Virus record (IMG/VR): IMGVR_UViG_3300030110_002054
Coordinates: 12,802 to 76,801 of that record
Length of the DNA: 64,000 nucleotides
Origin: a virus
Direction: 5' to 3' (one strand)
Below are positions 27,308 through 46,382 of this stretch, piece by piece. The notes under the pieces were generated by a model. It was given only the letters and a program-made list of their open reading frames with translations, was not told the origin of the DNA and did not search any database. Made by a program: the position numbers and the translations under genes. How positions within the stretch are numbered: position 1 is the first letter of the stretch; every line of letters starts with the position of its first letter.

Positions 27308-27451
27308 ATGACAGTAAAAAGACCCGATTGGCAAGAACAACTAAAGATGGGAGGCGCAGTTACAACAGCAACGGGGGGAACTGCGGCCCTGTTTAACAAT
27401 AAAGCGATAAGGGGGAGGAAACGTGCCAAAAAGAAAGAAAGAAAATATTGA
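27308..27451 (+). CDS. Small basic leader-tagged peptide (MTVKRPDWQEQLKMGG...RGRKRAKKKERKY)
   Basis: 47-aa ORF found manually, after an AAGGTG SD. Carries the WxxxLK motif and a strongly basic tail. Confidence 0.6.
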   Translation: MTVKRPDWQEQLKMGGAVTTATGGTAALFNNKAIRGRKRAKKKERKY

Positions 27452-28586
27452 CAAGGATGAAGATGATGTCGATATAGAGGCAGGTGGCCAAACTTTCTCC
27501 GGTGCGCTAGATACTAAGTCCATGCGCGAGATGTTTAATGCGTGGGAGAAGGAAGCAAGCGGATTAGAGGGAGAATCCATTGGTTCCGTAACTGGACTTA
27601 ATCTCCTTCAGGCAATTAAGAGTCAAGGAATGACTGGAAGGCTAAGAGGTGCTGGCCCGAACCTGCCAAACAAAGGTGGGGTTGAGATTTTCAAGGAACT
27701 AGTAAAGATATTCAATGCCAAGGAGTTCTCACCTGAGCAATTTGATTTCTTGAGAGAATTAGATTCCATGATGAATACCTATTCGGCAGATGACCATCCC
27801 TTGAACCCAGCAAACATCAGATTCGACAACCCGATTGACATAGATGAGAAGGGAAGGACGCTAAAACCCAAAGAGGTGTATGGCCATTATCGAACAGATG
27901 AGTATGAGAGCGCACAGAAACTCAAAGGGAAGGATAGACCCGCAGTTCCAGATAGTTGGTATAGCGATGGACGAGGTGCAGAACCTCCGATGTGGCAAGC
28001 ATTGTATGGAGATGGCAATGGAGATGTCTTTGATGGCATCAGTTTGCACCAAGTTGTAAAGAAGGCAATTGAAAACTTCGATAAGATAGAATTGGAGATA
28101 ACACAAGACGACCCATTGGACTTGACTACTAGGAAACTAGGAACTCCACAGGTTGCTAAGATTCTTCTCACCATTCCTAGCATAAAGGCAATAGTCAATA
28201 CCTTCATTCAAAGGCTGAAGCAAAATCCAACGAAGACATTTCCCGCTAAGTCTTGTAAATCTGCAATGGAGGCCAACCCAATCAAACTAGGAGCAAGGGG
28301 AAGTCAAGGGGTTAAGACCATCTTGGGCATTAGGGGAATGAAACAAGACATCAAGGAGATGTATGTGAAAATCAGTTGGAGGCAATGCAACAACATGGCC
28401 AAGATACTACTCGGTGACAATTCTCATTGGACAAGTGCTGGCAAGAACTCACTTCGCCTCGGTAAGAAGCCAACAGAGAAAAAGACGACTCCAAAACCCA
28501 AAGCGTCAGCAAAGCCAAAGAATGACGATACCGAGAAAAAATCACTAGATGCCGTTACTGATTGGAGGATGATTGTGAAATGTTGA
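27423..28586 (+). CDS. Hypothetical late protein
   Basis: 387 aa. The C-terminus DWRMIVKC resembles the leader motif. Confidence 0.75.
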   Translation: MPKRKKENIDKDEDDVDIEAGGQTFSGALDTKSMREMFNAWEKEASGLEGESIGSVTGLNLLQAIKSQGMTGRLRGAGPNLPNKGGVEIFKELVKIFNAKEFSPEQFDFLRELDSMMNTYSADDHPLNPANIRFDNPIDIDEKGRTLKPKEVYGHYRTDEYESAQKLKGKDRPAVPDSWYSDGRGAEPPMWQALYGDGNGDVFDGISLHQVVKKAIENFDKIELEITQDDPLDLTTRKLGTPQVAKILLTIPSIKAIVNTFIQRLKQNPTKTFPAKSCKSAMEANPIKLGARGSQGVKTILGIRGMKQDIKEMYVKISWRQCNNMAKILLGDNSHWTSAGKNSLRLGKKPTEKKTTPKPKASAKPKNDDTEKKSLDAVTDWRMIVKC

Positions 28587-28661
28587 AGTGTTGTGACATG
28601 AAGATATCCATAATGAACTACTCTGTCAGTTTTTGTCCATACTGCTTTGGGGGTGAAAAAG

Positions 28662-29618
28662 ATGAGTGATGTTCTTTGGGAGGATATGATAAAACAACCT
28701 CCACCACCACCGCCACCTGCTCCTCCAATGCCCCCACCACCAATGGGAGGAATGCCCCCTCCACCGGGAATGGGAATGAACACTCCCGACCCTCCCGGTA
28801 AAATCGTTCAAGACGCACCGGGAACCCAACAAGAGACTGTTGCGGTTGACCCCGATAAGGAGGAAGAAGATGATGAGCAAGTTGAGAAGGGTGCAATTCA
28901 AGATTGGCAAAGCCAATTGCAAGGAGGAGGAACCTACGCTCAAACTCCGACTGGCATCTATATGCCAAGTTATACAAATCCGCAAAATCCACAACAGGCA
29001 CAACAGGCACAACAGGGACAACAAGAAGAAGTACCTGACTCATCAGTTCAACCATCTACCTCAACATACCAACAAAATCTAAATTGGAATGCGCGGGGTG
29101 CTACAGGAGAAAATGCACCAAACCTATCTGATATGAATGATAAGAACATAGAAGAATACTGGGATGCTATGATAGCACAAGGTAACATAAAGCAAATTGA
29201 GAAACCCACAAGGGGTTCCTTGGCTTGGGTTAACCCATTGGTGTTTGATGATGCAGAAGGAAAACAAGTCGATAATAGACGACTTGCTCAACCTGAAACC
29301 AAAGAAAGTAAACCCCAAGGAAATCAGGCTCAAGGAAATCAGAAATCTAACTGGTTCAGCAATGTAGTCAGCGCACCATCTAAGGCAATCAATAGAGCGG
29401 CAGACGCGGTATTCGGGACGGATGAAGAAATCCAAAATGAAACTTGGATGGAAACAATGACCCAAGGTCGGCCTGAAAGAAAAGCCAAAAAAAATAGGGC
29501 AAGAGAATTAGTGGCGAATAAAAGGCGCACAGGAAAAAATACTCAATCAACTGCCACTAGAAATGAGCGGGGAGAAAGACTGGTTGATTCAGAAGATTCC
29601 ACTTGGAGAGATGAATGA
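28662..29618 (+). CDS. Pro/Gln-rich low-complexity leader-tagged protein
   Basis: MSDVLWEDMIK followed by poly-Pro. GGGGTGA SD. Confidence 0.7.
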   Translation: MSDVLWEDMIKQPPPPPPPAPPMPPPPMGGMPPPPGMGMNTPDPPGKIVQDAPGTQQETVAVDPDKEEEDDEQVEKGAIQDWQSQLQGGGTYAQTPTGIYMPSYTNPQNPQQAQQAQQGQQEEVPDSSVQPSTSTYQQNLNWNARGATGENAPNLSDMNDKNIEEYWDAMIAQGNIKQIEKPTRGSLAWVNPLVFDDAEGKQVDNRRLAQPETKESKPQGNQAQGNQKSNWFSNVVSAPSKAINRAADAVFGTDEEIQNETWMETMTQGRPERKAKKNRARELVANKRRTGKNTQSTATRNERGERLVDSEDSTWRDE

Positions 29619-30277
29619 TGATTATCAGAAAGAGATGTGCATTTTGCAATCACCCTGATAGAGAAGATATGGAGGGTGATTTGGAAGGACTCAAAATGAC
29701 TGCTGACCAACTCGACAAGAAGATGGATTGGATGAGTGGAACTGCATCTAAGCATCAGCGAAATCACATGGGTCACTATGAAGACTCATCTAATCCACGT
29801 TGCAACATATGCACATCTGAGATGCGTGGGGATATTGAGATGAATATATACAACGGAGATATGACTCCTGAGATGGCGGCGAAGATGGAGAACTGTTCTG
29901 TCGAGCAGGTTGTTCGTCATATGCGAAACCACGTTCAACCACTAGTGCAGAAGTCTGCCGCGCAGATGATAGCCGCTAGGGAATTGGATGAGGTCGAGAC
30001 TCTAACTAGGAACATCAGGAGGCTTGAGGGAAAGATAGACGAGTTGTTCGACATGGAGGAAGTTGGCAATCCCAAGTATATCGACTCGCTAACTAAGATG
30101 GCCAAGGAGATTAGGGAGAGTCTGAAGTATGTCATGGAGTTCAAGGGCAAGTTAGTCCACAAGAGACAGGATACGATTATAGTTCATCAGATGCAAATCG
30201 TCAAGGAGGTTCTAGCACAGAATCATCCTGATGTATGGTTGGATGTTAGGAAGAAGATGGAGGAAAAGATGCAATGA
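29615..30277 (+). CDS. Probable terminase small subunit
   Basis: Two CxxC...H..NH units (CAFCNHPDRE; CNIC...RHMRNH) with HTH-like segments and a C-terminal coiled coil, as in archaeal tailed-virus TerS. Confidence 0.55.
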   Translation: MMIIRKRCAFCNHPDREDMEGDLEGLKMTADQLDKKMDWMSGTASKHQRNHMGHYEDSSNPRCNICTSEMRGDIEMNIYNGDMTPEMAAKMENCSVEQVVRHMRNHVQPLVQKSAAQMIAARELDEVETLTRNIRRLEGKIDELFDMEEVGNPKYIDSLTKMAKEIRESLKYVMEFKGKLVHKRQDTIIVHQMQIVKEVLAQNHPDVWLDVRKKMEEKMQ

Positions 30278-30546
30278 GTTGGGAAAGTGTATTGAAAGCC
30301 GAGAAAGTTTTCATTTTATCTGAGGAAATGAGCATGGGTTACAATGAAGTAATTGCCGTTTTCAAAAGTAAAGAAGCACTCAACAAATATCTCTTGGAAA
30401 AACATTCTGGACATATAAAAGAGGGATTTGAGAATGAGCAGGGAGAAATACAATTCAGGAGTGATAAGGAGGCGCGGACTCTAGCACTACAGGACATAAT
30501 GAGGACATATGATTACATTATCAATGAGGCGGAGATGAAAGAATGA
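30274..30546 (+). CDS. Leader-tagged protein (MSWESVLKA)
   Basis: ORF with the shared N-terminal motif. Confidence 0.75.
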   Translation: MSWESVLKAEKVFILSEEMSMGYNEVIAVFKSKEALNKYLLEKHSGHIKEGFENEQGEIQFRSDKEARTLALQDIMRTYDYIINEAEMKE

Positions 30547-30755
30547 GTTGGAAAGAGATATTGAAAGGAAAAGGAGAAAGACACTTCTTTGAAGATGGGA
30601 AACAATGGACAGGTGAAACTCACAAGCATCCTGATGGTACTCTAATGTCAGGCAAGGAACATGAAGAAGGAGTCAGTAAGAAATTGTTTCATCTATACGA
30701 ATTAAGCGAAAAAGTGCTTCGCCATCTAAGTAAAGAGACAACGGAGATTAAGTAA
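30543..30755 (+). CDS. Leader-tagged His-rich protein (MSWKEILKG)
   Basis: Shared motif followed by a HFFEDG...THKHPDGTLMSGKEH...KKLFH body. Confidence 0.75.
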   Translation: MSWKEILKGKGERHFFEDGKQWTGETHKHPDGTLMSGKEHEEGVSKKLFHLYELSEKVLRHLSKETTEIK

Positions 30756-30756
30756 G

Positions 30757-31152
30757 ATGGATTGGCAAGAAGTTCTGAAGGTTCGGTATGCTGAAATTAA
30801 AGACTGGACGGAACGTGAGGAAGGTAGGGATAATTGTTGCGAGGTGGCCAAGAAGATGTATTGTGAATACGAACCTAAATTCATGAATCGAGATGGACTT
30901 GCACCTCTTTCTGAAGTCAAGGCAATGGACTGTGAACAGTTTCACAGTTATCTAGTAGACCTACTTCAAGAATCAAATAGAGATAAGGCTTGGTTCCATA
31001 TTGTTCTAAGCATCAGGAACTACAAGAAGCGATGCGACCAAAACAGACAATTCTTCACACCGGAAGGAGGAAGGCCAATGCGCTCAGATGATTTCGGCAG
31101 ACGCGACCCATATGAAGAAGGACAAAGAAGATTCAGGAGGAAGTATAGATGA
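30757..31152 (+). CDS. Leader-tagged protein (MDWQEVLKV)
   Basis: Shared motif followed by a Cys-containing body. Confidence 0.75.
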   Translation: MDWQEVLKVRYAEIKDWTEREEGRDNCCEVAKKMYCEYEPKFMNRDGLAPLSEVKAMDCEQFHSYLVDLLQESNRDKAWFHIVLSIRNYKKRCDQNRQFFTPEGGRPMRSDDFGRRDPYEEGQRRFRRKYR

Positions 31153-31466
31153 GTTGGAAAGATACACTAAAGGGGCTTATCAAGTGGACTCCCGGCAGAT
31201 ATAACAAGGAAGGACAACAACTGTGTGTGAATAATTGTATTCGACCAGCATCGGAGGATACCATCTTCGCAAGGATGCCGGGTAAATCTACTAAGCCATC
31301 TGATTTATGTCAATGGTGTTCAGATAGTTTGGGGAAGAGAGAAAAACCTCCTGTTGGGTATCAATTCTATGACAGGAATGGGAACCCAACGAGAAGTAGG
31401 GGCCAGCAGTCATTCATAGATAGAGCAACTAGAAACTTAAATGAAGAAAAGGAGAACAGAAGATGA
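31149..31466 (+). CDS. Leader-tagged zinc-finger protein (MSWKDTLKG)
   Basis: Shared motif plus CVNNC and CQWC. Confidence 0.7.
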   Translation: MSWKDTLKGLIKWTPGRYNKEGQQLCVNNCIRPASEDTIFARMPGKSTKPSDLCQWCSDSLGKREKPPVGYQFYDRNGNPTRSRGQQSFIDRATRNLNEEKENRR

Positions 31467-31792
31467 ATTGGGAAGAAATTGTAAAGGTAAAACAAGACTT
31501 GAAGGAACCGCTAGATTTGAAGGGTCTTTATGACGCAATAAAGGCATTAGATGCTGCGGGAGAAAGTTTGGAAATGCTACATGAAAAGAATGCTGAAAAC
31601 GTCAAAAGATTCCTTTCTGAAAGTCAGTATGAAAAATGGTGGGATAGGATGGAACAGGATAAAAGACAATTTATTTCTGACTTAGGTGAGATGAGAAAAC
31701 AAATTTACACTATGCTAAGAACCCTAAATGGGAAGACTAACATGGCTAGGAAACAAACTAGAGATGAACAAAGAACGGCGGCACAAGCATGA
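31463..31792 (+). CDS. Leader-tagged helical protein (MNWEEIVKV)
   Basis: Shared N-terminal motif. Confidence 0.75.
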   Translation: MNWEEIVKVKQDLKEPLDLKGLYDAIKALDAAGESLEMLHEKNAENVKRFLSESQYEKWWDRMEQDKRQFISDLGEMRKQIYTMLRTLNGKTNMARKQTRDEQRTAAQA

Positions 31793-32331
31793 ACTGGCAA
31801 GATATTTTGAAGATGCCATATATTGACTGGCGAGAATTGCAAGAACCATACGCTGATTCAGTAAGAGCAAGAGGAACTAGAGAAAATCCATTAGTATTCA
31901 TTGATGACCCTTCTCCATTGCCCGGTGAAGAATTCGACAATCAATATCTGAAATACTACGCAGGTAAAGGATATGGACAAAAAGACCACAAGACCTATGA
32001 TTATGATGAGAATGATGAGATGAGTTCTTTGGGGAGAGTGAAGCAGGATGGTAGGATAATCAAGCCGGAACTAACCAAGTATGGATTAGGAGTATTTCTA
32101 ACAGGAACGTTGACACACTACAAAGAGAATAGATACAAGTCAAAGTATGGTGGCAAAACCCAAACCTATGCAAAACCAAGGGGTTCAATGATACCTTGGA
32201 AGATATCTGTCAAGTATTGTTTAGATAACAACATCAACATTCCAGATAATGCCCCTATCTTCCTAAGTGGAAGTGAATCAGGAACTTACGGAGAATGGAA
32301 AAGTAAGCAACAAAAGGGGACTAAAGAGTAA
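31789..32331 (+). CDS. Leader-tagged protein (MNWQDILKM)
   Basis: Shared N-terminal motif. Confidence 0.75.
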   Translation: MNWQDILKMPYIDWRELQEPYADSVRARGTRENPLVFIDDPSPLPGEEFDNQYLKYYAGKGYGQKDHKTYDYDENDEMSSLGRVKQDGRIIKPELTKYGLGVFLTGTLTHYKENRYKSKYGGKTQTYAKPRGSMIPWKISVKYCLDNNINIPDNAPIFLSGSESGTYGEWKSKQQKGTKE

Positions 32332-34397
32332 TGTCATGGCAAACTTCACTTCTCAAGGCATCCTTTGATACTCAAAAAATCAAAGCCGGAAGTGTTAGTC
32401 ATAAGATAATCGTGGCTCTAGATGCCAGCAATCTAGATGGCATCATTAAGAAAATTAAATCTCAAGAAATGAATCTAGGTGGGGTAAGAAGTTCCCTCAA
32501 TAAAATTATCAGACTCTTCAATCAAGTGAATGAGCAATCTAAATCTATGAAAGGGCCACAATGGGAAAAGGCAAAAGAAAGATATGAGGATGTTACCTTT
32601 GCGGCACAAGCCATAGATGTCCCAATTGAATCACACCTGATGGAGAACGCTGAGAAACTCAAGGAGATGTTGGATGACCTTGCTCCGGCAAAAATGTCAG
32701 GTGGAAAAAGAAATCCGAATTACAAAGATAAGGTTCCCAAGAAAGTTCTGAATTTATACACTAAATTCTTGAATCAGGATTTTCAGCCTCTTGTGGATTA
32801 TCTGAACGAAGGTAGTCAAGATGCAAAGAAAGCCAAGATAAAGCAACTACGACTTTGGGAGAAGAACAACAACAAATTCGTGAAGGTCTTGAAATCACAG
32901 AAGGCTAACAAGGCTAAGTTGATGGGATACGATACACTCGATGTTGAACTCCTACTTCCTGATGATTTCAATTATAATATTCTTCCCAAGGCTTGGAAGC
33001 AAGAGGAACAAGCAAACGGTGTTTTGGTTACCCTGCCAAGTTGGATTACAATCCTACAGGGTAAGAAAATGTCAGGTGGACAGCCAAGTAAGCCAATTAC
33101 TAGGAATTTCTTCGCTAAGGTTTTCAATCAGCCTAAGTATTCTTCAACTAGAATTGCCGCCTCTACTAAAGTTGAAGTCGAAGGTATAACTGATGACATA
33201 GCATTAGGATACATGCAACATGTATTGACAAAGGTATCAGGTGCAGATAGGCAACCCTTCATGCCTAATCTTGGGAAGGCGGGAGACATGTCAACTGGTT
33301 CTGCCAAGAAAGTAAACACAATGCTATTCGGAATTGGAAGCGGGCATCAAATGGGAACCGCGAAGACTCTTCCTTTACTTGAGTATCTATTCAGAAAGAA
33401 AAAGATAGACATTGATTCAGGATTCGCTACAGACACTACCAAAGAGGCTCTGACCAAAGATGCAGTTTATCGTAAGATGAATCGTGGTGGAGTTGATGAG
33501 AAGTATAAGGAAATAGTTGAGTTGTTTGAGAATCGAACCAAGAATAAGGGGGACACATCAGGCTTCGCTAAGTTTGAGTTAGATGTGAGAGCCGCAGGTA
33601 AAGAAATGGTGGAATTGTATGAGGAGTTGAAGAAGGATACTCCTCTCATCCCAAGTGGATTATCTGTTGATATGAGAGATTTCTTGCTAAAGCCGGGAGT
33701 AAGGGGATGGAAATCCAAGCCTGACCTAAAGGCAGAATATGCAGCAATACATCAAATTCTTCCAAATGGACAAGCAATAAAACAAATGAGATTTGGCGAA
33801 ACTGTTTATGGAGATAGGAAACAGGCTGATGAGACAAAGAGAGTTGAGCAAATTCATACTGCATTAAATCGCATGAGGCCATCAAAACAAGATAGTCAAA
33901 TTTTAGTTCCTAGTAGTGAAGCAGATGTTGACCTCCTAAAGTTCCTTTTCACTAGTGTTGACTACAATCCTATTGCAACATTGAAAGAAGCCTTTGCTGA
34001 AAAGATAAAAACAGACGATGATTATGTTCGGTTTGCCATCAAAGACCAACTACAATTATCATTCGTTTATTTGATAGGGGCTTTGAAACATTTAGAATCA
34101 ACTTTGTTGGGTTCCAATACTATCCATAAGGCGTTGTTAAAAACTGTCAAGGTCAAGCGAGTTTTCGATAAGAAGTCTAAACAGTTTGTAGAGGGTAAAC
34201 CACCAACCGCAGAAGAAATGGAAAAGTTGGAAACTCAATTAGAAACAGAAATCAATACGGTTTATCCACAGATAAGAGACAAATTGATTGAAGCAACGAA
34301 AGAAAAAATTAGCGAAGTTTTGAACGAGCCAATAGTTATTGACAAGGATGGTGTCGCACAACCATTGGATTGGCTCAAAGAAAGACCGGGAATGTGA
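32331..34397 (+). CDS. Large Lys-rich leader-tagged protein (MSWQTSLLKA), putative internal virion protein
   Basis: 688 aa with a variant of the motif. No recognisable domain. Confidence 0.75.
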   Translation: MSWQTSLLKASFDTQKIKAGSVSHKIIVALDASNLDGIIKKIKSQEMNLGGVRSSLNKIIRLFNQVNEQSKSMKGPQWEKAKERYEDVTFAAQAIDVPIESHLMENAEKLKEMLDDLAPAKMSGGKRNPNYKDKVPKKVLNLYTKFLNQDFQPLVDYLNEGSQDAKKAKIKQLRLWEKNNNKFVKVLKSQKANKAKLMGYDTLDVELLLPDDFNYNILPKAWKQEEQANGVLVTLPSWITILQGKKMSGGQPSKPITRNFFAKVFNQPKYSSTRIAASTKVEVEGITDDIALGYMQHVLTKVSGADRQPFMPNLGKAGDMSTGSAKKVNTMLFGIGSGHQMGTAKTLPLLEYLFRKKKIDIDSGFATDTTKEALTKDAVYRKMNRGGVDEKYKEIVELFENRTKNKGDTSGFAKFELDVRAAGKEMVELYEELKKDTPLIPSGLSVDMRDFLLKPGVRGWKSKPDLKAEYAAIHQILPNGQAIKQMRFGETVYGDRKQADETKRVEQIHTALNRMRPSKQDSQILVPSSEADVDLLKFLFTSVDYNPIATLKEAFAEKIKTDDDYVRFAIKDQLQLSFVYLIGALKHLESTLLGSNTIHKALLKTVKVKRVFDKKSKQFVEGKPPTAEEMEKLETQLETEINTVYPQIRDKLIEATKEKISEVLNEPIVIDKDGVAQPLDWLKERPGM

Positions 34398-34401
34398 TGA
34401 T

Positions 34402-37395
34402 ATGGTCAGAGAAGATGTGGATATCGAAATAAATCGAGATGAGGTCTTACCTACTATCTTAACTGAGGGTCTAGATGAAATCGCAGAAATGGTATTTGAA
34501 TCTCTTCTACAACAATACGAAAGAGATAATCAAGGCGACCCAAATAATGAGGATAAAGCCGAGCAACAAACAGAAAATAGACTAAAGAACGTATTGAATA
34601 GTATTCCTGAAGATGCTCTTTATGAATTCCTAGTAGAAAACATGACAGTAGTTATGGAGAAGGGAGAAGGTGAGGAATCACTACGAGAAAAAGGTAAGGA
34701 ATCTGTCTTCTATAAACACCCGAATGGTAAGATTCTAGTTTTGCCACAATTCCTAGACATAACTGAGGAACAAGAAGCCGTCCAAAAGAAAATTGTTAAT
34801 CGAATTCAGAAAAAATATCGAAATTTAGCGAGTTTACCAAGAGGAGTGCTTGTTCAACAGATGAGATACATCTTCACGAACGCGGTTTCGACACATGTAT
34901 CAGGAAAAGGCAGAACCGTTAAGGAAACTAGAGAACATTTAGGCACAATAGGGCAAAAAGGCCAAAGAAGCAGAGTAGAATTAATGGATAAGTCTCTAAT
35001 GACCAATATTTTGAATAAATTTTGGCTTCCATCTAGTGGAAAGAATCTAACTTTCAAAAGTGTCTTCGATGATGATTGGAATCCAAAAGAAATTGACCTT
35101 AGTGGTGTCAATTTGAAGAAAAATATGACAGAAGACAAAATTCGACAACTAACAGGGCAAATTCAACGATATGATTTGCAAATACAAAACCATTTGGAGC
35201 CACTAGTCAATGTTTTGGAAGTAACACTACGAAATGATGGCGTTAAAGTTGAATTTGAGGCTGATGCGTTCATTGGTAGTTATGATTTGAAGAAACTGAA
35301 CAGAAGACAAGCCATTTACAGTTATTGGGGTGACATAAACGATGAATATGATGTTTTCAAAGATAAATTTGAATCATTTTACGATGCATTAGGTGATGTT
35401 GAGTTAGATGAAGAAGAATTTCAAGATAACAAGAAAATAAAGGCCATTGTCGAAATATTAGATAAGTTAGAGGACGATGACCAACTGAAGAAGAAAATAA
35501 TGAATGGTGATTTAAATTATATTGTTAAATTCAAGCCTCTAACACTACAAACTAACTTTTCAGAAGATAAAGGCTGGTTATTGTTTGAAAAGATGGCAAA
35601 GGAGATTGGAATCTTCGATGATTTTGATGCAAAGGAACTCGCAGACGAAATAAGTAACGTAGATGCTCGCCGTGAGAAACAAACCTCACTAAGTTTCGGT
35701 GGAAATGACTCATTACAATCTGATGAAGGAAAAACCAGCGATTACATGGCTGACACTATGGATACGGGCATTGATAGTAAAGGCGAAGAGAAAGTCCGAG
35801 GAGGAAGTCTTGAACATGAGATTAAGCAAGTATCTGAGATGGGAATTTTGCTTCAGGAACTAGTAAATGTCGAAGTTGACCCACTATACTATCATGCCTT
35901 CATGAAAGAAGGTGCAATCTTCAAGGACATGGTAGTTTTCGCAAATGAACTTGAAGAAATCAAATCTGCAATGCTTAGTGCCGGAGCCGCAAGAGAATTA
36001 GTTGACGGCGTGGAAGTCGATGATGATATCATAGACTATCTTGAAGAATTGACAAAATATGCTGCAATAGAAGGCAAAGGAGGATATTATTTGCCACTTC
36101 AACAAACCACTAACACATTTATCGCTGATTTGGATAAAGACTTCTCAATGGAGGACGTAATAGATGCAAAGGGCGATACTGTTAGAAATCTAGGAAGTGA
36201 GAACGAAATTAATACTAGGTTGAAAGATATTGGAAAGTTCCTCAGTCTCATTGCAGGAATTCTAGATGCTGGTAAGGATTTAACGCAATCAGCAAGTCCT
36301 TCTATTGCAGATACAGAAGATACCTCAGTAGGCCCAAAGAAAAACTCACCCAAGACAGATAAACCTGAATTGGGTCGAAGTCCTTTCACAAGTGCTACTT
36401 TCTTAGGAAGAGATAACAAGGAAAATCTTCTAGAAGAGTTAGAAGATGTTAAGGAAGAATTTGATGAACTATTGGAGGCAATAATTGATTTCTTCATCGT
36501 TCCCATGTTAGGCAGTAAAGTTCCTTTCGATGACCCCATCCCATTTGAATTCACAAACAGTAATGCACTCAGATACTTCAAGATATTAGGAGGTGGCAAG
36601 AAACCTGATAGCGCATTCTTCCGTGCTATGGTGATGGAAGGAAGAAGAGGCCCATTGTTCATCAAGAAGAATCAACTTGAGACTTTGGTGAAGGATTTGG
36701 AATATGTTACTTCTCCGGGGGAACAGAAAGACCTCCCCACTCTTTTGAATAAATTTAGAAGTCTAGGAGATACTGTAAATTACATTCTGAAACTAAAGAA
36801 GCGCAGTAGATTAGGTCAACAGGTATATGCAGAATTGGGTCATTCTCTAAGTGAGATACTTGATGATAACAATATGACTTGGCCTGAAGACCAAGTATTT
36901 CCAGCGAAGGCATCTTGGGGTAAGACCCCACAACAATGGGAAGAGGAATACAACAAGAATCCAAATTATGTTTGGCCATTGGGATATATCGTTAGTCACA
37001 TAAAGAGGAATAGAGAAGGCTACAGTCAAAACCCTAGAACACAAGCGAAGGGTAGAGATAGAAAGCAGACAGGGGCAAACACACTTATCCAAAGATTCTT
37101 CTCTGCAATTGATGATATGAAATTAACAAGAAGCCTTGCTGAATTGCAGATACTAGAAACACACGACAACATCAGGAAGATGCTTGGTAAACCAGTATTC
37201 TACAATACTGCCAAGGTAGACAATTATGAACATGTGATGACCGCAATTCGCAAACTTGACGAGAAATACAATGTGGAAGTATCTGCTTTTGAGATTGAAA
37301 GCATCGTCAATGAAATCGGTTCTATGGCTGAGATAGGAAAGAAGCATGGAATTCCAACGGAGGGTGTGTATTTCGTCAAGGCTAACTTCAGGTGA
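34402..37395 (+). CDS. Large acidic hypothetical protein, putative virion-associated
   Basis: ~997 aa from MVREDV. The C-terminus is HTH-like (SMAEIGKKHGIP). Confidence 0.75.
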   Translation: MVREDVDIEINRDEVLPTILTEGLDEIAEMVFESLLQQYERDNQGDPNNEDKAEQQTENRLKNVLNSIPEDALYEFLVENMTVVMEKGEGEESLREKGKESVFYKHPNGKILVLPQFLDITEEQEAVQKKIVNRIQKKYRNLASLPRGVLVQQMRYIFTNAVSTHVSGKGRTVKETREHLGTIGQKGQRSRVELMDKSLMTNILNKFWLPSSGKNLTFKSVFDDDWNPKEIDLSGVNLKKNMTEDKIRQLTGQIQRYDLQIQNHLEPLVNVLEVTLRNDGVKVEFEADAFIGSYDLKKLNRRQAIYSYWGDINDEYDVFKDKFESFYDALGDVELDEEEFQDNKKIKAIVEILDKLEDDDQLKKKIMNGDLNYIVKFKPLTLQTNFSEDKGWLLFEKMAKEIGIFDDFDAKELADEISNVDARREKQTSLSFGGNDSLQSDEGKTSDYMADTMDTGIDSKGEEKVRGGSLEHEIKQVSEMGILLQELVNVEVDPLYYHAFMKEGAIFKDMVVFANELEEIKSAMLSAGAARELVDGVEVDDDIIDYLEELTKYAAIEGKGGYYLPLQQTTNTFIADLDKDFSMEDVIDAKGDTVRNLGSENEINTRLKDIGKFLSLIAGILDAGKDLTQSASPSIADTEDTSVGPKKNSPKTDKPELGRSPFTSATFLGRDNKENLLEELEDVKEEFDELLEAIIDFFIVPMLGSKVPFDDPIPFEFTNSNALRYFKILGGGKKPDSAFFRAMVMEGRRGPLFIKKNQLETLVKDLEYVTSPGEQKDLPTLLNKFRSLGDTVNYILKLKKRSRLGQQVYAELGHSLSEILDDNNMTWPEDQVFPAKASWGKTPQQWEEEYNKNPNYVWPLGYIVSHIKRNREGYSQNPRTQAKGRDRKQTGANTLIQRFFSAIDDMKLTRSLAELQILETHDNIRKMLGKPVFYNTAKVDNYEHVMTAIRKLDEKYNVEVSAFEIESIVNEIGSMAEIGKKHGIPTEGVYFVKANFR

Positions 37396-37399
37396 TTAG

Positions 37400-39342: not shown

Positions 39343-39351
39343 GGGCTTGCT

Positions 39352-40692
39352 ATGATGGGAGGAAGTGACAAAAAAGAAAGTGAGAAATTCGATGAACTTG
39401 CAGATGTTGCAAGAAGGAAGGAAGCCATCGAAGAAGAACAGAGAAGAATCACTCAGGAGATGAAAAACGCATGGTTAGACAGTTCCCCACTTGAAGACCA
39501 GTTTAGCATAGAGAAGAATTTTGCTGAGGATTTCAAAATTAGCCTAAGTGAGGCTAAGAAAATGCTTCACATTGATATGAAGAAATACCAAGTCGAGGGA
39601 ACAGATATTCCTAAACTCGTAAAATCCCTGAAGGAATATAGAAGGACGCTCAAGGGTGAAGAGAAGATAAATGTCACAAAGGCAATAGATAATCTGATTG
39701 TATCTTATGGTGACCATTTACATGACAGTATTAACAAAATATATTGGCTAAAAAAATACTCTTCTGTTCTGAAAGAAATGAACTGTTCTGAGGAAGACAT
39801 ACTCAAACTCTCCTTCGTTAATGATTTATCTACCCGTAGAGATATGATAGACACGCTTTGCAAATATTGGGAGGCTAGTCTAGAAAGAAGGGATATGCCA
39901 TACAACGAAGAGTATTCATCTCTATCGAAACAGATGACAAATGGTAAGAGGGAATTTAAGAAATTAATCAAGAGTCACATGGTGAATGTGAAGCCCAAGG
40001 AAATAATCAATCAACACATACTAAAGGCAATTTGTGAAGAACCGGGAATTTCTTCTAGACAAATACATGAGAAACTACCTAAGCCTCTCTTCAAGAGAAC
40101 CACACCAAGCATAATTTCTAAGATGGCCATCAAGAATAATGTTACTACTGTCAATGGTGCTTTTTACAAATTTTCAGATGACATCAAGAAAGATATCTAT
40201 GCATATACTGCGGCCTTCATTGATTCAGATGGCTACATAACTATGGATAGAAATTTTAATCCTAGAGTTGGGTTAGTTGCTACTGGCGACAGAGGCAAGG
40301 CATTCATGATGGAGATGCATAAATCCCTTGGATGTGGTAGACTACACCTTGACCAAAAATCACCACAAAATACGAGAGCAGTAAATAGATTAAATTTCTA
40401 TTCTGCGGCAGATGTTACTGAACTACTAACAAAGTGCTTACCCCATTTCAAGATGAAGAAAGGAAATGCAGAGATTCTCCTAGAGTTAGTCAGAATGAAG
40501 AAGTCCCACAAGAAGGCCGAGTGGTACAAGACAAGAAGAGAGGAACTTTTCAAACTAATGAAGTACGAGAATCACAAAGACCATGTTGGCTATGATTTCA
40601 TACAGGACGGGATAGATGTTGATAACATATCAAAACTGTATGGAAATTCTAAGATGTTGGAAATGGATAAGTTAGAGGGTTTGATTGCATGA
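39352..40692 (+). CDS. LAGLIDADG-domain protein with helical and wHTH N-terminal region
   Basis: YAYTAAFIDSDGYI...MHKSLGCGRL...LPHFKMKK. The segment ILKAICEEPGISSRQIHE is wHTH-like. Confidence 0.8.
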   Translation: MMGGSDKKESEKFDELADVARRKEAIEEEQRRITQEMKNAWLDSSPLEDQFSIEKNFAEDFKISLSEAKKMLHIDMKKYQVEGTDIPKLVKSLKEYRRTLKGEEKINVTKAIDNLIVSYGDHLHDSINKIYWLKKYSSVLKEMNCSEEDILKLSFVNDLSTRRDMIDTLCKYWEASLERRDMPYNEEYSSLSKQMTNGKREFKKLIKSHMVNVKPKEIINQHILKAICEEPGISSRQIHEKLPKPLFKRTTPSIISKMAIKNNVTTVNGAFYKFSDDIKKDIYAYTAAFIDSDGYITMDRNFNPRVGLVATGDRGKAFMMEMHKSLGCGRLHLDQKSPQNTRAVNRLNFYSAADVTELLTKCLPHFKMKKGNAEILLELVRMKKSHKKAEWYKTRREELFKLMKYENHKDHVGYDFIQDGIDVDNISKLYGNSKMLEMDKLEGLIA

Positions 40693-40844
40693 AGTGGCAA
40701 GAGGTTTTGAAGAAGAAGCCTGTCGATGAGGCAATAGATGACTTAGAGGACATTGCAGAAGACCATGATTTATCCCAAGATGAATGGAGTTCTGTCGATG
40801 ATGCCTCTGATTATTTGTTTGAGCATAAGGTGAAGGAGGATTAG
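40689..40844 (+). CDS. Small acidic leader-tagged protein (MKWQEVLKK)
   Basis: 51-aa ORF found manually, with an ATGA overlap and the shared motif. Confidence 0.65.
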   Translation: MKWQEVLKKKPVDEAIDDLEDIAEDHDLSQDEWSSVDDASDYLFEHKVKED

Positions 40845-40846
40845 TT

Positions 40847-42517
40847 ATGGTAGAAGATAAGCGTAGATTTAGTGTTAGAAATTTGTTCAGAAGAACTACG
40901 CCAAAACCTACTGATAGGACGATATTCAATCCCGGTATTCAAGAGAAGAATACCTCCTACATGCTTACTTCTCCAATCATTTACCACATGGTTCAACAAT
41001 CCACCATTGTTAGAACCTGTATAACTCAACTCAAACAGGAGATATTCAGGAGAGGCTACACTTGGGAAGAGAAGTTCGTTGCTAAGTGTAAAGCATGTGG
41101 AGAAGAACATGGGTCACCTGCAAAGAAATGCAAATCCTGTGGCTCAGTAGACTTGGTGAAGCCTGACCCCAAACAATTAGATTATGCACATGATTTCTTA
41201 GAAGGCTATGTCAACAAGTCCGAACAACTTTTTATTGACGTTCTCAAAGAACTTGAGGATGATTTGAATATCATGGATGACGCATATCTTGTCATCGTCA
41301 AAGAATATTACATGGATAGTAATGCAGAAATCAAGATGCATAGAATCAAGGAAATATACAGGGGTGACCCTGTAACTATGCATATCTATTCTAATGAGAT
41401 TGGAGAAAGAGGAAGTAAAGGATATACTTGTTTGAAGCACAGGAATAAGGTCTACACTAATTCAACTGATTTATGTGAAGAGTGTAATTCAGAATTACAT
41501 CCTATCCATTACGTCAATAGAGTAAATGGAGAAGAACAGAATTTCATCAAGGGAGAAGTATTGCATTTCAGTAAGTATTCCCCAAGTAGGTTGTATGGTC
41601 TTTCACCTATCATCACCCTTTGGAATAATGTAACCACATTGATTGCAATGGAGAATTATGTTAACTCATCATATACAAAGGCAAGAATGCCAAGAGGACT
41701 ACTAGCGGTTCAAACTAGAAACATGGATTCAATGAAGTCATTTTGGCGTGGTGTCAAAGAAAAGATGGAACAAGACCCACACTTCATTCCTGTAATGGGT
41801 ATAGAATCCGATAATGGCAAAGGCTCCGTTGAATGGGTGAAGTTCATGGATAGCCTGAAGGAGATGGACTACATCTCAGTCAAGGATGATTTGCGAGATA
41901 GAATCTCTGCATTCTATGGTGTGAGTAAAATCTTCATGGCAGATAACTCCGCTAGTGGTGGACTCAACAATGAGGGAATGCAGGTTCTTGTAACCAATAG
42001 AGCAGTTGAGATGGCACAGACAATTTGGAATAACTATGTCTTCCCATTCATGACGAAGGAGTTCGGCATAACTGATTGGGAATTGAAACTCCCACCGTCC
42101 GAGGAAGAGGATGAGATAGCAAAACTCAGAAAGAGAGAGATAGAAGTAAACGTAGCGGCGGCAATCAAGAATCTAGGATTCGATGTTGATATGGATGATG
42201 ATGGTCGATTCTCGTACAAGAAACCTGACCCTCCTCCGGGTGGTGCTGAACAAGGAGATAAAGAAGGCGAGTTAGAATTAGACCCCTACGCTGGAACAAA
42301 TATCGACCAATCACAATTAGGGCAAATGATGGAACAGGGAACTAGACCTAGTAAGGAAGAAGCAGGTCAACCAGCAGAAGTGAAAGGAAAACCCCCAAGT
42401 GGAAAGAAGAGAAATAAACCCGGTATGAATGTTGGACCGGATAAGAGATTCGCTGGAATGCCTAAAGGAGTAGGCAATGAGAATGTAGATAAGAGAACGG
42501 AAAGGAGAGTTCCATGA
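40847..42517 (+). CDS. Portal protein with zinc-ribbon insertions
   Basis: HK97-like portal features (EVLHF...LYGLSPI, PRGLL, EMDY...RISAFYGV), position after TerL, and CKAC/CKSC and CLKH/CEEC pairs. Confidence 0.88.
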   Translation: MVEDKRRFSVRNLFRRTTPKPTDRTIFNPGIQEKNTSYMLTSPIIYHMVQQSTIVRTCITQLKQEIFRRGYTWEEKFVAKCKACGEEHGSPAKKCKSCGSVDLVKPDPKQLDYAHDFLEGYVNKSEQLFIDVLKELEDDLNIMDDAYLVIVKEYYMDSNAEIKMHRIKEIYRGDPVTMHIYSNEIGERGSKGYTCLKHRNKVYTNSTDLCEECNSELHPIHYVNRVNGEEQNFIKGEVLHFSKYSPSRLYGLSPIITLWNNVTTLIAMENYVNSSYTKARMPRGLLAVQTRNMDSMKSFWRGVKEKMEQDPHFIPVMGIESDNGKGSVEWVKFMDSLKEMDYISVKDDLRDRISAFYGVSKIFMADNSASGGLNNEGMQVLVTNRAVEMAQTIWNNYVFPFMTKEFGITDWELKLPPSEEEDEIAKLRKREIEVNVAAAIKNLGFDVDMDDDGRFSYKKPDPPPGGAEQGDKEGELELDPYAGTNIDQSQLGQMMEQGTRPSKEEAGQPAEVKGKPPSGKKRNKPGMNVGPDKRFAGMPKGVGNENVDKRTERRVP

Positions 42518-42624
42518 GTGAACTGCTTGAAGCGGCAAGAAAATGGAAAGAAGAGATTGACAAATTGAATGCAGAAACAGATGAAAGAATTAGAAAAAAT
42601 TTGGAGGAGTTAAAAAATGAGTGA
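42514..42624 (+). CDS. Small coiled-coil peptide (MSELLEAARKW...)
   Basis: 36-aa ORF found manually, overlapping both neighbours. Confidence 0.45.
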   Translation: MSELLEAARKWKEEIDKLNAETDERIRKNLEELKNE

Positions 42625-42844
42625 AGAAAAAAGCGTAAGACAATTGGAAAGAGAACTGAAGGCCGCAAGAATCCGTGAGGGAACAGAAGCAAAGAAGATG
42701 GCTACCAAGAGTAGAGACTACTCGGTTGGTGGAATCGACAAGGCAACTACTGTAGAGAAGAAAACCCCCGGTGCTAGTGATATCCCTGATGTTATCTTGA
42801 TGCCAAAGAAACGCAAGAAGCAATCTGAAAATATACCATTCTGA
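42617..42844 (+). CDS. Hypothetical protein
   Basis: 75 aa with a GGAG SD. Confidence 0.65.
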   Translation: MSEEKSVRQLERELKAARIREGTEAKKMATKSRDYSVGGIDKATTVEKKTPGASDIPDVILMPKKRKKQSENIPF

Positions 42845-42853
42845 GATGATTAG

Positions 42854-44866
42854 ATGACGTTCATGGATGTTCTTCGTAAAGAAGAAGAAAAAGAAACTGT
42901 AGAAAAACCTACTAGTTCCATCCATGCTGACGTTTGGGATTTATTCGATAGGTATTCCAAGAAATCTAAGGCTATATCTCGACAAGCACTTGAAGATGCA
43001 GATGAAGCATTGCAGACGTTCTTAGATTCTTCACCTGCGGGTGAGCATCCCGAAGAAGGTATGAGATACGACACCTTTGGTGAAATATTAGATGTGACCA
43101 ATCTATTCCGAGAATCATTTAGAACTGGTAAAGTAAATTTGAATGCTATAGATGCATCAGAAGAAGCAAGAGAAAAATTTGTCAAAGACATGGAAAAATT
43201 CTCAAGACGAGCAGAGGACTTAGAAGCAGATTTGTTTGACCAAGCCAGCCAAGAGGATGATGAGGTTGCAGATAAGTATTGGAGACAAAACAAAACTTTC
43301 AAAGATATGATGGCAAAACTTTTCGGAAAGGAACTAGTTCTACAATCTAGAGTTAGGAGAACAGGTAGTGGAGAAGAGGAATACACTACAGTAACGAGTA
43401 AAAACGTAGGAGGAAAGAGTAGTGGAATTCTTGAAAAATTGGTTGCTACTCTTAGAGAACCTGCGTCACCCATACAAGAATCATCTAAGACCCTACAGAC
43501 CCTAATGACTAACGTTGCAAAAAATGGAACGAATGATAGTAGGTCTAAACAACTGATGAAGAAACTTCACAAGAATAATTTCTTTGATAGAAAAACTACA
43601 TCCAAGATACAGGAGTTCCTATACAATGGTAAATCTCTACCAAAGCATGTTAGAAAACTTCTCATTGAAAGAGAAGCAGAGTGGGAAGGCGATGATTGGT
43701 CTAGTTATCGAATGTATGGAGGTAAGCCTTCTAAAGAATTAATCATAGACATTTTTACCTCACAAGGAATAGGGCGCACGAATGTAGAAGGTGGTAAAGG
43801 ACTACGTTCTAAATTAACAAGATATGCTTCCATGAATGTAGATAGCATGATGGAAAGAGTAGAAGGCATCATGTATGATGGAAAGGGAGAAGACTTCCAC
43901 TATCTATTTGACAAGGATTATTCTGACGATATTATTTTTGCAATCTATAGGGTGACTGCAAAACTAGAGTCTCTACTAAGTCGTGCAAAAAAGGGTAGAG
44001 CAGATGTTGGACGAAAAAGCAAAAGAGTTCAAGAAAAAAAAGTACCGGAAGGACTTGAGGTTAACGTTCCCGATGAAGCCTATATCAAACCAGTCTATAG
44101 TGAGATAAACCGACTCCTACGTTTCCTACATTTCCTTCTAGCAGTAAATAAGATAACTGGACAATCACACAGACTCAAGGAACAACGCCTAGAAATAGTT
44201 GACAAGATACAAAAATTTGGAACTAGAAGCAGGGGCCAGTATAAGTTAGAATTTGAAAAACTAGATATCAACGCCATAGATGTAACAGAATCAACTTCCC
44301 CATTCAGAAGCATGATTGCTGCGTATGACAAATACAAACCGAAAAAGAAGGACCGTAAGATTAGTGTTGCTGGGGCTGGAAAAGAATTCCAGTTTGAAGA
44401 AGGGACTTCTAGAGAAGACATCGCAGATAAACTACAAGATGAACTGGCACAAGATTTGAAGCAATTACAAAGCAGACTCAATAGAAGCAAGAAAGAAAAA
44501 ACCATTGCGGCGCGTGAACAGGAAATTCAAGCAATCAATAGTTTAATTGCACAATGGAAGCCAAAGACGAAAACTCTAGAGAGAACCAAGTATGAAGAAC
44601 CCGAAGGTCAGCAAAGAATCGCACAACTATTATCTGAAGATAAACAAATGCGAGACAAATTCACAAGAGAAATAGGTTCTGCTCTAAAATTCTTAAAAGA
44701 ATCTATAGCAAACAACGAAGAGAAGTTAGAAAGAATCAAAGATAAGAAAGGGCTTGTTGACATAGAAACAGAAAAGAAGATTCGTGCATTGAAGCATACG
44801 TTGAAATTAACCGAACAAAGTGTCAAGGACTTTAAACTGCCATTCAAGTTGGAGGAATCAGAATGA
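42854..44866 (+). CDS. Large leader-tagged protein (MTFMDVLRKE)
   Basis: 670 aa, charged and helical, with a variant of the motif. Confidence 0.75.
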   Translation: MTFMDVLRKEEEKETVEKPTSSIHADVWDLFDRYSKKSKAISRQALEDADEALQTFLDSSPAGEHPEEGMRYDTFGEILDVTNLFRESFRTGKVNLNAIDASEEAREKFVKDMEKFSRRAEDLEADLFDQASQEDDEVADKYWRQNKTFKDMMAKLFGKELVLQSRVRRTGSGEEEYTTVTSKNVGGKSSGILEKLVATLREPASPIQESSKTLQTLMTNVAKNGTNDSRSKQLMKKLHKNNFFDRKTTSKIQEFLYNGKSLPKHVRKLLIEREAEWEGDDWSSYRMYGGKPSKELIIDIFTSQGIGRTNVEGGKGLRSKLTRYASMNVDSMMERVEGIMYDGKGEDFHYLFDKDYSDDIIFAIYRVTAKLESLLSRAKKGRADVGRKSKRVQEKKVPEGLEVNVPDEAYIKPVYSEINRLLRFLHFLLAVNKITGQSHRLKEQRLEIVDKIQKFGTRSRGQYKLEFEKLDINAIDVTESTSPFRSMIAAYDKYKPKKKDRKISVAGAGKEFQFEEGTSREDIADKLQDELAQDLKQLQSRLNRSKKEKTIAAREQEIQAINSLIAQWKPKTKTLERTKYEEPEGQQRIAQLLSEDKQMRDKFTREIGSALKFLKESIANNEEKLERIKDKKGLVDIETEKKIRALKHTLKLTEQSVKDFKLPFKLEESE

Positions 44867-45207
44867 GTTGGCAGGACATTCTCAAAGAATCAGAATTACT
44901 CTCCAAGATAAAGCCAAAGCAAAAGAAGAAGATTAAGAAACTTCTACAGTCATCTCAGCCTACAGAATATATGGGACAAGATATGACTAAACTAAGTTCA
45001 TTACTATCTGAAATGAAGAAACTTGATTTGGTTAAATCTGATAAGAATCTTCAGAAGAAGTTTGAGGGATTTGACGAAAAGAACTTGGAGATTGTTTCTT
45101 CTGCCGCAGAACTAAGAAAGGACTATGAGACTCTATACAGACAACTAAGGCAAATGGTATATCCAAAGAAGAAAGGAGATTTACAAAACGGAGTTGATGA
45201 TGAATGA
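44863..45207 (+). CDS. Leader-tagged protein (MSWQDILKE)
   Basis: Shared motif plus internal LVKS. Confidence 0.75.
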   Translation: MSWQDILKESELLSKIKPKQKKKIKKLLQSSQPTEYMGQDMTKLSSLLSEMKKLDLVKSDKNLQKKFEGFDEKNLEIVSSAAELRKDYETLYRQLRQMVYPKKKGDLQNGVDDE

Positions 45208-45305
45208 CATTGAATTGGAAACTAAGTCTAAAGGAAGCACTTGAGGGTGATTTCAAAATGATGATAAAGCAAGACGCAGACGGAGAAGGCGAGGAAGACG
45301 CATGA
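45204..45305 (+). CDS. Tiny peptide made mostly of two leader-like motifs (NWKLSLKE, DFKMMIKQ)
   Basis: 33-aa ORF found manually, with ATGA overlaps on both sides. Confidence 0.45.
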   Translation: MTLNWKLSLKEALEGDFKMMIKQDADGEGEEDA

Positions 45306-45532
45306 CTGATGAAAATGATGAGATAGTCATGCTTCTAAAGGCACTTGTCGATAAGGTAAAGGCTCTTGAAGAAGCCGTTTATCATAAGGACAATCTTCTC
45401 ATGAAGTCCGGTTATGTCGTAGTAGATTCTCCCACCCCACAACTAGCCAACAAGACTACTGCTGGCATCACTTCAGCAGTTGGTGATATGAAGTGGGATG
45501 ACATTCACAAGATGGTAGGTGAGATGCAATGA
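45302..45532 (+). CDS. Hypothetical head-module protein
   Basis: 76 aa with LLKA and LMKS. Its C-terminal WDDIH matches the scaffold C-terminus (SWDDIH). Confidence 0.7.
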   Translation: MTDENDEIVMLLKALVDKVKALEEAVYHKDNLLMKSGYVVVDSPTPQLANKTTAGITSAVGDMKWDDIHKMVGEMQ

Positions 45533-45831
45533 ATTGGGAAGGTGTCTTGAAAGAACCACCTATGCCGAACATCTCACCAAAAAGGATATTTGGTGACGAC
45601 AACCCATATACGATGAATGACGGTATGCATGATGCAAGAGCCGATTTAAAAGCAGAAGTGGCCTTAATGAAATCCTATGTTGAAAAACTAGAAGCGGCGA
45701 TGTCAGAAACATCATTAATGGATTTAACTAAGGACAGAATGAATAACATGAGTGATGCGTTAAGCGAAGCAAGTGGAAGAATAAAAATGGCTTTCAAACC
45801 TACTAGTGTAGGGGCCGCCGGAGAAGCGTAA
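45529..45831 (+). CDS. Leader-tagged protein (MNWEGVLKE)
   Basis: Shared N-terminal motif. Confidence 0.72.
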   Translation: MNWEGVLKEPPMPNISPKRIFGDDNPYTMNDGMHDARADLKAEVALMKSYVEKLEAAMSETSLMDLTKDRMNNMSDALSEASGRIKMAFKPTSVGAAGEA

Positions 45832-45841
45832 GGTGAATAAA

Positions 45842-46051
45842 ATGAGTTGGCAAGATACAATAAAAGCATACGGAATACATGGTCGAAGTGGTGACTATGG
45901 AATGGAACAAGCAGTAAGGGATATGGTCATGCAACTAAATGAAATGGAACATGACATAGAAGATGTTCCTGAAGATAGAAGAAGCGCAGTTCAACAAGCA
46001 TTCGATTCTGCATCAAAGGCACTAGATAATTTGCGAATGGTAATGGGATGA
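45842..46051 (+). CDS. Leader-tagged protein (MSWQDTIKA)
   Basis: Shared motif. Start reassigned after an AGGTGA SD. Confidence 0.72.
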   Translation: MSWQDTIKAYGIHGRSGDYGMEQAVRDMVMQLNEMEHDIEDVPEDRRSAVQQAFDSASKALDNLRMVMG

Positions 46052-46055
46052 TATT

Positions 46056-46382
46056 ATGACATGGGAAAACGTATTGATGAATGGTAGCGTATTGAAGAAT
46101 CAAGCGGTACAACAAGGAAGGCAGAAGTTGTTGGATGCGATAGTGCAACGTTATGGTTTAGATGCATTAGAACAACAGTTTGTTCAAGGGCAAGGACTAG
46201 CCCCTGAGAATCTGTATCAAGGACTTGTTGATTTCATAAGTAGTGGTTCAACATTGGAACAAGCAATTGCAGAAGAGCAACAGGCAATGCAAATGAGCAT
46301 GGAATCTGGGAGAAAACCGGGTGGACTTACACTTGAACAGTATCAAAAAGATATGCAACAACCACAACAACCACAACAATAG
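46056..46382 (+). CDS. Leader-tagged Gln-rich protein (MTWENVLMNGSVLKN)
   Basis: Variant of the shared motif. Confidence 0.7.
   Translation: MTWENVLMNGSVLKNQAVQQGRQKLLDAIVQRYGLDALEQQFVQGQGLAPENLYQGLVDFISSGSTLEQAIAEEQQAMQMSMESGRKPGGLTLEQYQKDMQQPQQPQQ

Follow-up and report, generated by a model that had tools for sequence, protein, structure and literature searches.

Why should a run of unrelated genes in the head-gene block of one virus begin with the same few residues? The question is raised by a 64-kb window of the 76.8-kb virus record IMGVR_UViG_3300030110_002054 (gene coordinates below are positions in this window), in which the N-terminal motif M-x-W-x-x-[ILVT]-[LIV]-K, here called the tag, recurs at gene starts. 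An initial annotation of this DNA had listed 16 such N-termini and proposed a signal for capsid targeting and maturation cleavage; all 16 were found at their places in the sequence. The strict motif began 10 genes of the 76.8-kb genome, compared with a mean of 0.085 and a maximum of 1 in 200 whole-genome shuffles. Looser forms stood on five further genes (Table 1), and a 47-aa open reading frame at 27308 (DWQEQLK), which overlaps the next gene, was counted as doubtful. The initial annotation had seen the full motif on no left-arm gene, and the motif was indeed restricted to the head-gene block: it was present on 10 of 26 genes of this block and on 0 of 55 others (Fisher p = 3e-6), and a genome scan detected no strict copies at the starts of minus-strand or tail genes.

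The enrichment by gene module recurred in related genomes. A search of IMG/VR with the portal protein yielded 80 loci at 70–90% identity (marine virus contigs), in which all 341 strict tags lay on the strand of the head genes; the strict tag was found on 273 of 1,600 called plus-strand genes, and the relaxed pattern on 445. A complete 95.6-kb relative with terminal repeats, whose capsid protein is ~50% identical to that of the window, had 24 tagged genes. They formed a block that extends from 82.7 kb across the end of the genome and into the head module, in which ~25 consecutive genes begin with the tag, and the replication and tail modules had none. When IMG/VR was scanned with a DNA pattern of the tag, the multi-copy contigs among the matches listed were related to the window or had its composition, and five further records all contained the capsid protein at 52–65% identity. 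Applied to 596 Gb of prokaryote genomes, the same pattern detected no multi-copy contigs; its 99 matches, all single, were scattered over the taxa and close to the number estimated for chance, and a cellular origin of the tag was rejected on this evidence. The head-module genes of halovirus HVTV-1 and of the Methanomassiliicoccales virus vir335 showed no shared start. Judged by this distribution, the tag is an invention of this virus lineage, and since it is confined to the lineage and prokaryote genomes are at chance level, the component that reads it is most likely encoded by the virus. Genome-specific subtypes of the tag, a sign of co-evolution with a receptor, were considered and rejected: the variants were mixed within genomes (chi-square p ~0.05, without phylogenetic correction), a mixture that fits one tolerant reader recognising the tryptophan, the hydrophobic pair and the lysine.

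The proteins behind the tag have nothing else in common. Pooled, the tagged set comprised 636 distinct proteins in 289 families, 200 of which were singletons, and the alignment of 104 tagged representatives shared only M1, W3 and K8; the earlier claim that the sequences following the lysine are unrelated was thus borne out. Conservation ended sharply at K8, with residues 9–18 being polar, charged or proline. The core motif was N-terminal in 331 of 447 occurrences, and many of the 116 scored as internal were alternative start codons or one conserved site. The relatives kept a fixed backbone of, in order, a zinc-finger-like 220-aa protein, a variable tagged run, a tagged ~600–690-aa protein, an untagged ~1,000-aa protein, TerL, an HNH protein, a variable tagged run, the portal, a variable tagged run, a 74-aa protein, a tagged ~580–700-aa protein, a tagged 114-aa protein, a variable tagged run, a 76-aa protein, a 196-aa protein, a DNA ligase, the protease and the capsid protein. 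Core genes were untagged, and the accessory genes filling the variable slots were tagged. The tag is a portable N-terminal module, borne by unrelated proteins and located in the head-gene block. Orthologues in the conserved tagged slots exposed its tolerated variation: those of the 670-aa protein start with MTFMDVL[KR], MSFMDILTK or MTWTSILK, those of the 114-aa protein with MSWQDILK, MKWFDIVK, MWESQLIK or MSWQYTLQK, and the starts of the 688-aa orthologues vary likewise. Given such exchanges among W..ILK, F.D[IV]L[KR] and W...L.K, the looser forms of the window are, on the strength of the orthologue alignments, real variants of the tag.

The constraint on W3–K8 acts on the protein. In 304 distinct tags from the 80 portal-anchored relatives, all six codons were in use for Leu7, the codons of Ile6/Val6 were those usual for the genome, and Lys8 was AAA or AAG in roughly genomic proportions; because synonymous choice was free or genome-like at these sites, it is the amino acids that are conserved. 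The initial annotation had set conservation at the DNA level against its own proposal; such an explanation was ruled out for W3–K8 by the free synonymous sites and was retained for codon 2 only. Here the first four nucleotides of 87% of the tagged genes are ATGA, which overlap the TGA stop of the preceding gene, and Ser2 is nearly always encoded by AGT. An A at +4 and AGY for Ser2 were likewise favoured, less strongly, in untagged genes of the same operons, so that both are features of the operon and not part of the tag, and position 2 is shaped by stop/start coupling rather than by tag function. A Shine-Dalgarno-like G-rich run at −12 to −8 of the tagged genes confirmed that the tagged starts are real starts.

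In a few cases the tag was joined to other sequence. A ~40-aa basic domain (MPIxKxKxGYxWGxKG...AAAYASGY) precedes the tag in frame at L060:12801-13223, L066:2418-2873 and L067:2789-3334, in some cases with no methionine at the tag, which we read as a natural fusion with an internal tag. Between TerL and portal, the window encodes an HNH-like protein of 446 aa with the C-terminal sequence ...KLEGLIA, followed by the tagged 51-aa gene (39352-40844 together); in five relatives (L003, L035, L059, L068 and L070) the HNH protein and the 51-aa protein are fused via L-E-x-[VI]-L-K, and the split version of the HNH tail appears to have gained a fresh tag. These rare natural fusions suggested that the motif marks module boundaries and that a free N-terminus is not strictly needed. 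In one relative, at L127:2201-7969 (corresponding to G001 83.8-89.6 kb) and again at L127:13914, at least eight neighbouring paralogues of 167–806 aa carry an extended leader, W..ILK-NIQISSQRTSSKDYV, so that in this sub-family a second conserved segment stands right behind the lysine, past the eight-residue tag.

Within the tag, W3, I/V6 and L7 fall on one helix face. AlphaFold2 models of the 670-aa and 688-aa proteins showed residues 3–12 as a helix not packed on the body, with residues of predicted local distance difference test (pLDDT) score <50 after or around it; in the 688-aa model the tag helix itself had pLDDT <50, and in the 670-aa model a low-confidence linker lay behind it. Sec, Tat and archaeal class III signal peptides were tried and rejected, as only three of the eight tag residues are hydrophobic and polar sequence comes next, with no hydrophobic core of ~7–15 or more residues and no twin-arginine. 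Membrane segments were predicted in 2 of 289 tagged families versus 9 of 113 untagged families, which argues that the tagged proteins are soluble; they include very small, highly charged proteins and reach ~800 aa. A Pfam search with the 104 representatives gave single matches only, to PAP2, a pentapeptide repeat, a tRNA-ligase-type phosphodiesterase (CPD), a metallopeptidase and PBDC1, and the tagged genes of the window had no match in Pfam or PHROGs. The ESM Atlas returned no usable match and a PDB profile search none. A homologue search with the 688-aa protein found just 9 unnamed relatives, neither AlphaFold2 model had a significant Foldseek match, and comparison of the 688-aa model with PDB representatives (VIA-align) gave Z <8 to generic helical bundles.

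The genome around the tagged genes is divided into a minus-strand left arm, encoding SNF2 and UvrD helicases and a clamp-loader-like ATPase, and a plus-strand right arm encoding TerL, portal, the S78 prohead protease, an HK97-like capsid protein and a tail tube protein. The closest matches of the portal in the phage collection searched were haloarchaeal siphoviruses (27–30% identity), and DNA near-identical to the window occurs in marine and aquatic viral metagenomes. With its 76.8-kb genome, halovirus-related head genes and marine source fitting the published description of magroviruses (PMC5434244), the window virus is called magrovirus-like here. Magroviruses have been described as belonging to the most abundant viral groups in surface ocean waters; like their Marine Group II hosts, they are uncultured (PMC5434244, PMC10160649). 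One 184.7-kb IMG/VR record (G005, the record of L112) has capsid genes at both 70457-71803 and 161908-163248, 62% and 65% identical to that of the window, and may represent two magrovirus genomes joined in assembly.

The tagged genes lie in a single co-directional plus-strand block (28.6–52.6 kb) that includes the TerL, portal, protease and capsid genes, with intergenic gaps of −4 to +14 nt. Judged by this spacing, they are probably expressed together with the head genes; among sequencing runs recorded as RNA, none was found to contain the window stretch. In the 23-kb head block (29615-52626) nearly all neighbouring genes either overlap by 4 nt (ATGA) or lie ≤14 nt apart, leaving no space for internal promoters or terminators, and its two larger gaps contain small open reading frames that the gene caller had dropped. 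The arrangement of ligase before protease is kept in all relatives examined. The 318-aa protein at the start of the block has at least seven prolines right after the Lys-Gln that follows its tag (MSDVLWEDMIKQPPPPPPP), and Pfam and PHROG searches with it and with the ~1,015-aa protein were without match.

Table 1 Head-block genes of the window, with the form of tag at their N-termini.
Positions	Strand	Protein	N-terminus	Tag form	Context or basis
28662..29618	+	318 aa, poly-Pro behind the tag	MSDVLWEDMIK	looser (offset, weak)	sequence
29615..30277	+	zinc-finger-like, 220 aa		untagged	in relatives conserved directly upstream of tagged arrays
30274..30546	+	90 aa	MSWESVLK	strict	
30543..30755	+	70 aa	MSWKEILK	strict	
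30757..31152	+	131 aa	MDWQEVLK	strict	
31149..31466	+	105 aa	MSWKDTLK	strict	
31463..31792	+	109 aa	MNWEEIVK	strict	
31789..32331	+	180 aa	MNWQDILK	strict	
32331..34397	+	688 aa	MSWQTSLLK	looser	conserved slot ahead of the 1015-aa protein
34348-37395		~1,015 aa, conserved		untagged	always between the tagged 600-690-aa protein and TerL
40689..40844	+	acidic, 51 aa	MKWQEVLK	strict	
40847..42517	+	portal protein		untagged	Pfam/PHROG
42854..44866	+	670 aa, after the portal	MTFMDVLRK	looser (variant)	orthologues with MTWTSILK
44863..45207	+	114 aa	MSWQDILK	strict	conserved in most relatives
45204..45305	+	33-aa open reading frame	MTLNWKLSLK	looser (offset, weak)	
45302..45532	+	coiled-coil-like head-module protein, 76 aa, conserved		untagged	conserved M-L-L-K at residues 10-13
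45529..45831	+	100 aa	MNWEGVLK	strict	
45842..46051	+	69 aa	MSWQDTIK	strict	
46056..46382	+	108 aa	MTWENVL..VLK (MTWENVLMNGSVLK)	looser (degenerate)	
46391..46981	+	196 aa, conserved, scaffold candidate		untagged	conserved LAILK at residues 14-18
46989-49598		869 aa, ATP-dependent DNA ligase domain			Pfam, E = 2e-28; in head module directly before protease
49611..50855	+	prohead protease			Pfam S78 PF04586, E = 1e-9, aa 29-178; then acidic linker and C-terminal helical region
50858..52252	+	major capsid protein, HK97-like			~28-aa N-terminal peptide ending N-x-[LI]-[LI]-K

To account for the tag we tentatively favour a capsid-targeting signal that works like the capsid-targeting sequence (CTS) of phage T4 and puts proteins into the head, a reading whose probability we place a little below one half. 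It is suggested by the occurrence of the tag on soluble, hypervariable proteins in a tight head block, by a virus-specific reader and by peptide precedents that have been tested. In the mechanism we propose, M-x-W-x-x-[IV]-[LI]-K would form a short amphipathic helix, with W3, I/V6 and L7 on one face and Lys8 behind them, followed by a hydrophilic linker. The helix would dock the attached protein on a virus-encoded part of the assembling procapsid, the candidates being the inner face of the HK97-fold capsid protein, scaffold-like proteins and the C-terminal region of the protease, and in this way the head would come to enclose soluble accessory proteins in a large and rapidly changing assortment.

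The nearest precedent is the T4 CTS, MKTYQEFIAE, which heads the diverse internal proteins IPI, IPII and IPIII and uses residues 4 and 7 for targeting and 8 and 10 for processing (PMC9026906, PMC3012670). Both are short N-terminal peptides on unrelated, fast-evolving proteins encoded with the late genes, and they are alike in layout, with an aromatic residue, two variable residues, a hydrophobic pair and the residue preferred by the protease. They share no sequence homology: T4 gp21 cuts after glutamate, whereas here the protease is of the S78 family and the tag ends in lysine, without the [LI]-x-E site by which gp21-type removal is recognised. The tag envisaged at the outset was supported in part, by its portability, its conservation at the amino-acid level, its confinement to the head-gene block, its lineage specificity and the S78 protease encoded by the virus. 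The host here is archaeal, and the scale is ten-fold larger: each genome has 13–24 tagged genes and the sample holds 289 families, as against a handful in T4. By this comparison the tag is not a member of the T4 CTS system, though it would work like one. Encapsulin targeting peptides (consensus DGSLGIGSLKG) dock on the lumen of an HK97-fold shell via two hydrophobic residues and Lys/Arg (PMC7925596) and are, like the tag with its W3, I/V6, L7 and K8, ~10 residues long with hydrophobic anchors and a basic residue. In contrast to the tag, which is N-terminal, predicted to be helical, contains tryptophan and no GSL, and belongs to a DNA-packaging virus, the encapsulin peptide is C-terminal (in the cited study), Gly/Ser-rich, extended and uncleaved. 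In phage P1 an N-terminal segment of DarB suffices to send the protein or a reporter into the head (PMC9024508); that signal, of >9 and ≤30 residues, belongs to one protein, whereas the tag is a motif common to many families. Shared N-terminal starts also occur in jumbo-genome giant phages of bacteria (MNWYKxAQ, MKYFKN and MNRYDIALGKKP), with motifs unlike the tag. The magrovirus papers searched make no mention of an N-terminal motif, and a keyword search turned up no account of a tag of this kind for viruses of archaea.

In a further, less certain step, the S78 prohead protease would cut the tag off behind Lys8, and the cargo would be delivered to the host along with the DNA. The S78 protease is the candidate enzyme, and cleavage after K8 is plausible because HK97 gp4, the archetype of the same family, cuts after lysine (K103/S104, sequence TFNK|SLGS; PMC10275583); we nonetheless regard such cleavage as doubtful. 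The HK97 site is not of the hydrophobic-hydrophobic-Lys type, HK97 removes a 103-residue scaffold domain, and no tag shared by accessory proteins is known there. In the capsid protein, the ~28-aa N-terminal peptide is kept in lineages ~50% identical, and the segment following it varies. Residues 1–28 (50858-50941) read M-x-G-Y-I-x-T-[IM]-x-D-L-E-A-A-T-Y-G ... N-x-L-L-K before a variable Gly-rich segment, the early residues Y-I-[RK]-T-M-K of this lineage loosely resemble the tag, and the peptide may be a propeptide. The protease and the 196-aa and 76-aa proteins each have a conserved x-[LI]-[LI]-K-type site within the first 30 residues.

Several observations weigh against loading into the head and cleavage there. 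The initial annotation had pointed to FQILKS and FDILKM on either side of the protease domain and to ALLKA near the capsid N-terminus; these are present and conserved, yet they are not special to processed proteins, since equally conserved hydrophobic-hydrophobic-Lys sites occur in the portal, TerL, the ligase and the HNH protein. The argument from a shared cleavage site is weak for this reason, and ILK was discarded as a signature of processing. By-eye comparison also matched FQILKS and FDILKM with EIKF and AAMKS of HK97 gp4, and these two sites may thus be structural elements of the protease fold. In the alignment of the 114-aa orthologues the tryptophan is constant in all rows shown and the position of the lysine slips by one residue. 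The number of tagged genes, up to 24 per genome, is far above the few CTS proteins of T4. One tagged protein bears a PAP2 membrane-phosphatase domain, Pfam was nearly blank for the 104 representatives, and two fold models gave no informative match. The tagged 51-aa protein, a tail that has been split off a terminase-associated HNH protein, is not obvious cargo, and its case would fit docking on the packaging/portal complex at least as well as cargo loading.

The strongest rival is that the tag docks proteins on a virus-encoded hub other than the capsid interior, such as the portal/connector, the terminase-HNH packaging complex, the capsid exterior (where it would anchor decoration proteins) or an intracellular assembly site, without the proteins being cargo. 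The evidence for a virus-specific, protein-level, head-module tag applies equally to such a hub; the 51-aa protein, which other genomes attach as a C-terminal tail to the HNH protein between TerL and portal, speaks for it, as do the many tagged genes flanking TerL and portal. We nevertheless think it unlikely: to our knowledge there is no precedent for 289 unrelated families on one hub outside the capsid, known decoration and portal-bound proteins are few per virus, and the very small, highly charged proteins of the tagged set are more like internal proteins. A recognition leader for a modifying enzyme or chaperone, similar to those of ribosomally synthesized and post-translationally modified peptides or served by a dedicated maturase, could draw on the conserved head-module proteins of unassigned role that adjoin the arrays (the 220-aa zinc-finger-like, 1015-aa, 74-aa and 76-aa proteins). 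It struck us as the least credible of the alternatives, given that Pfam/PHROG searches recognised no radical-SAM, transferase or peptidase gene in the block besides the S78 protease, that the tagged proteins are extremely diverse and extend to 800 aa, and that the tag lacks the Cys, Ser or Thr pattern of modification cores.

Two other explanations dispense with targeting altogether. If the tag were an N-terminal module for expression or stability, acting in coupling, processing or resistance to proteolysis, the prevalence of ATGA starts, the AGT codon of Ser2, the G-rich run and the packing of genes with 4-nt overlaps would be expected of it. The amino-acid-level constraint on W3–K8 with free synonymous sites, the lack of the tag on tail, replication and core head genes of the same genome, and the presence of ATGA overlaps and AGY Ser2 in untagged genes make this improbable. 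Even less probable is that the peptide is functionless, a relic of a duplicated 5′ end or a recombination linker, as might be read from the paralogue arrays, from the eight neighbouring genes of one relative with the longer leader W..ILKNIQISSQRTSSKDYV, and from ATGAGTTGG, the longest near-invariant DNA stretch. The bodies of the 289 families have nothing in common after K8, and 9 nt is too short for homologous recombination. Moreover, orthologues ~50% diverged retain the tryptophan, the hydrophobic pair and the lysine, with drift at positions 2, 4 and 5 and in codon choice, the mark of purifying selection on the peptide.

Returning to the capsid-targeting signal, its extension to injection of the tagged proteins into the host is a speculative step that we consider rather unlikely. 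In its fullest form, an eight-residue code would be read by direct binding to the inner face of the HK97-type capsid or to the scaffold, in the manner of encapsulin targeting peptides, be clipped after the lysine by the S78 protease and load hundreds of fast-evolving effector families for co-injection into Marine Group II archaea; this too we put forward with considerable reserve. If the tag is a head-loading signal, it would mark, from sequence alone, the proteins carried into the cell, which would be the likeliest factors of anti-defence or take-over, and the injected proteome of these viruses would become readable from their genomes. Archaeal viruses with an HK97/S78 head would then also have CTS-like cargo loading, far exceeding that of T4 in scale, and an eight-residue handle would be available for packaging tests in HK97-type shells. 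Whatever its reader proves to be, the tag unites the 289 families of the sample into a large class of unknown proteins that are co-regulated and have one common partner.

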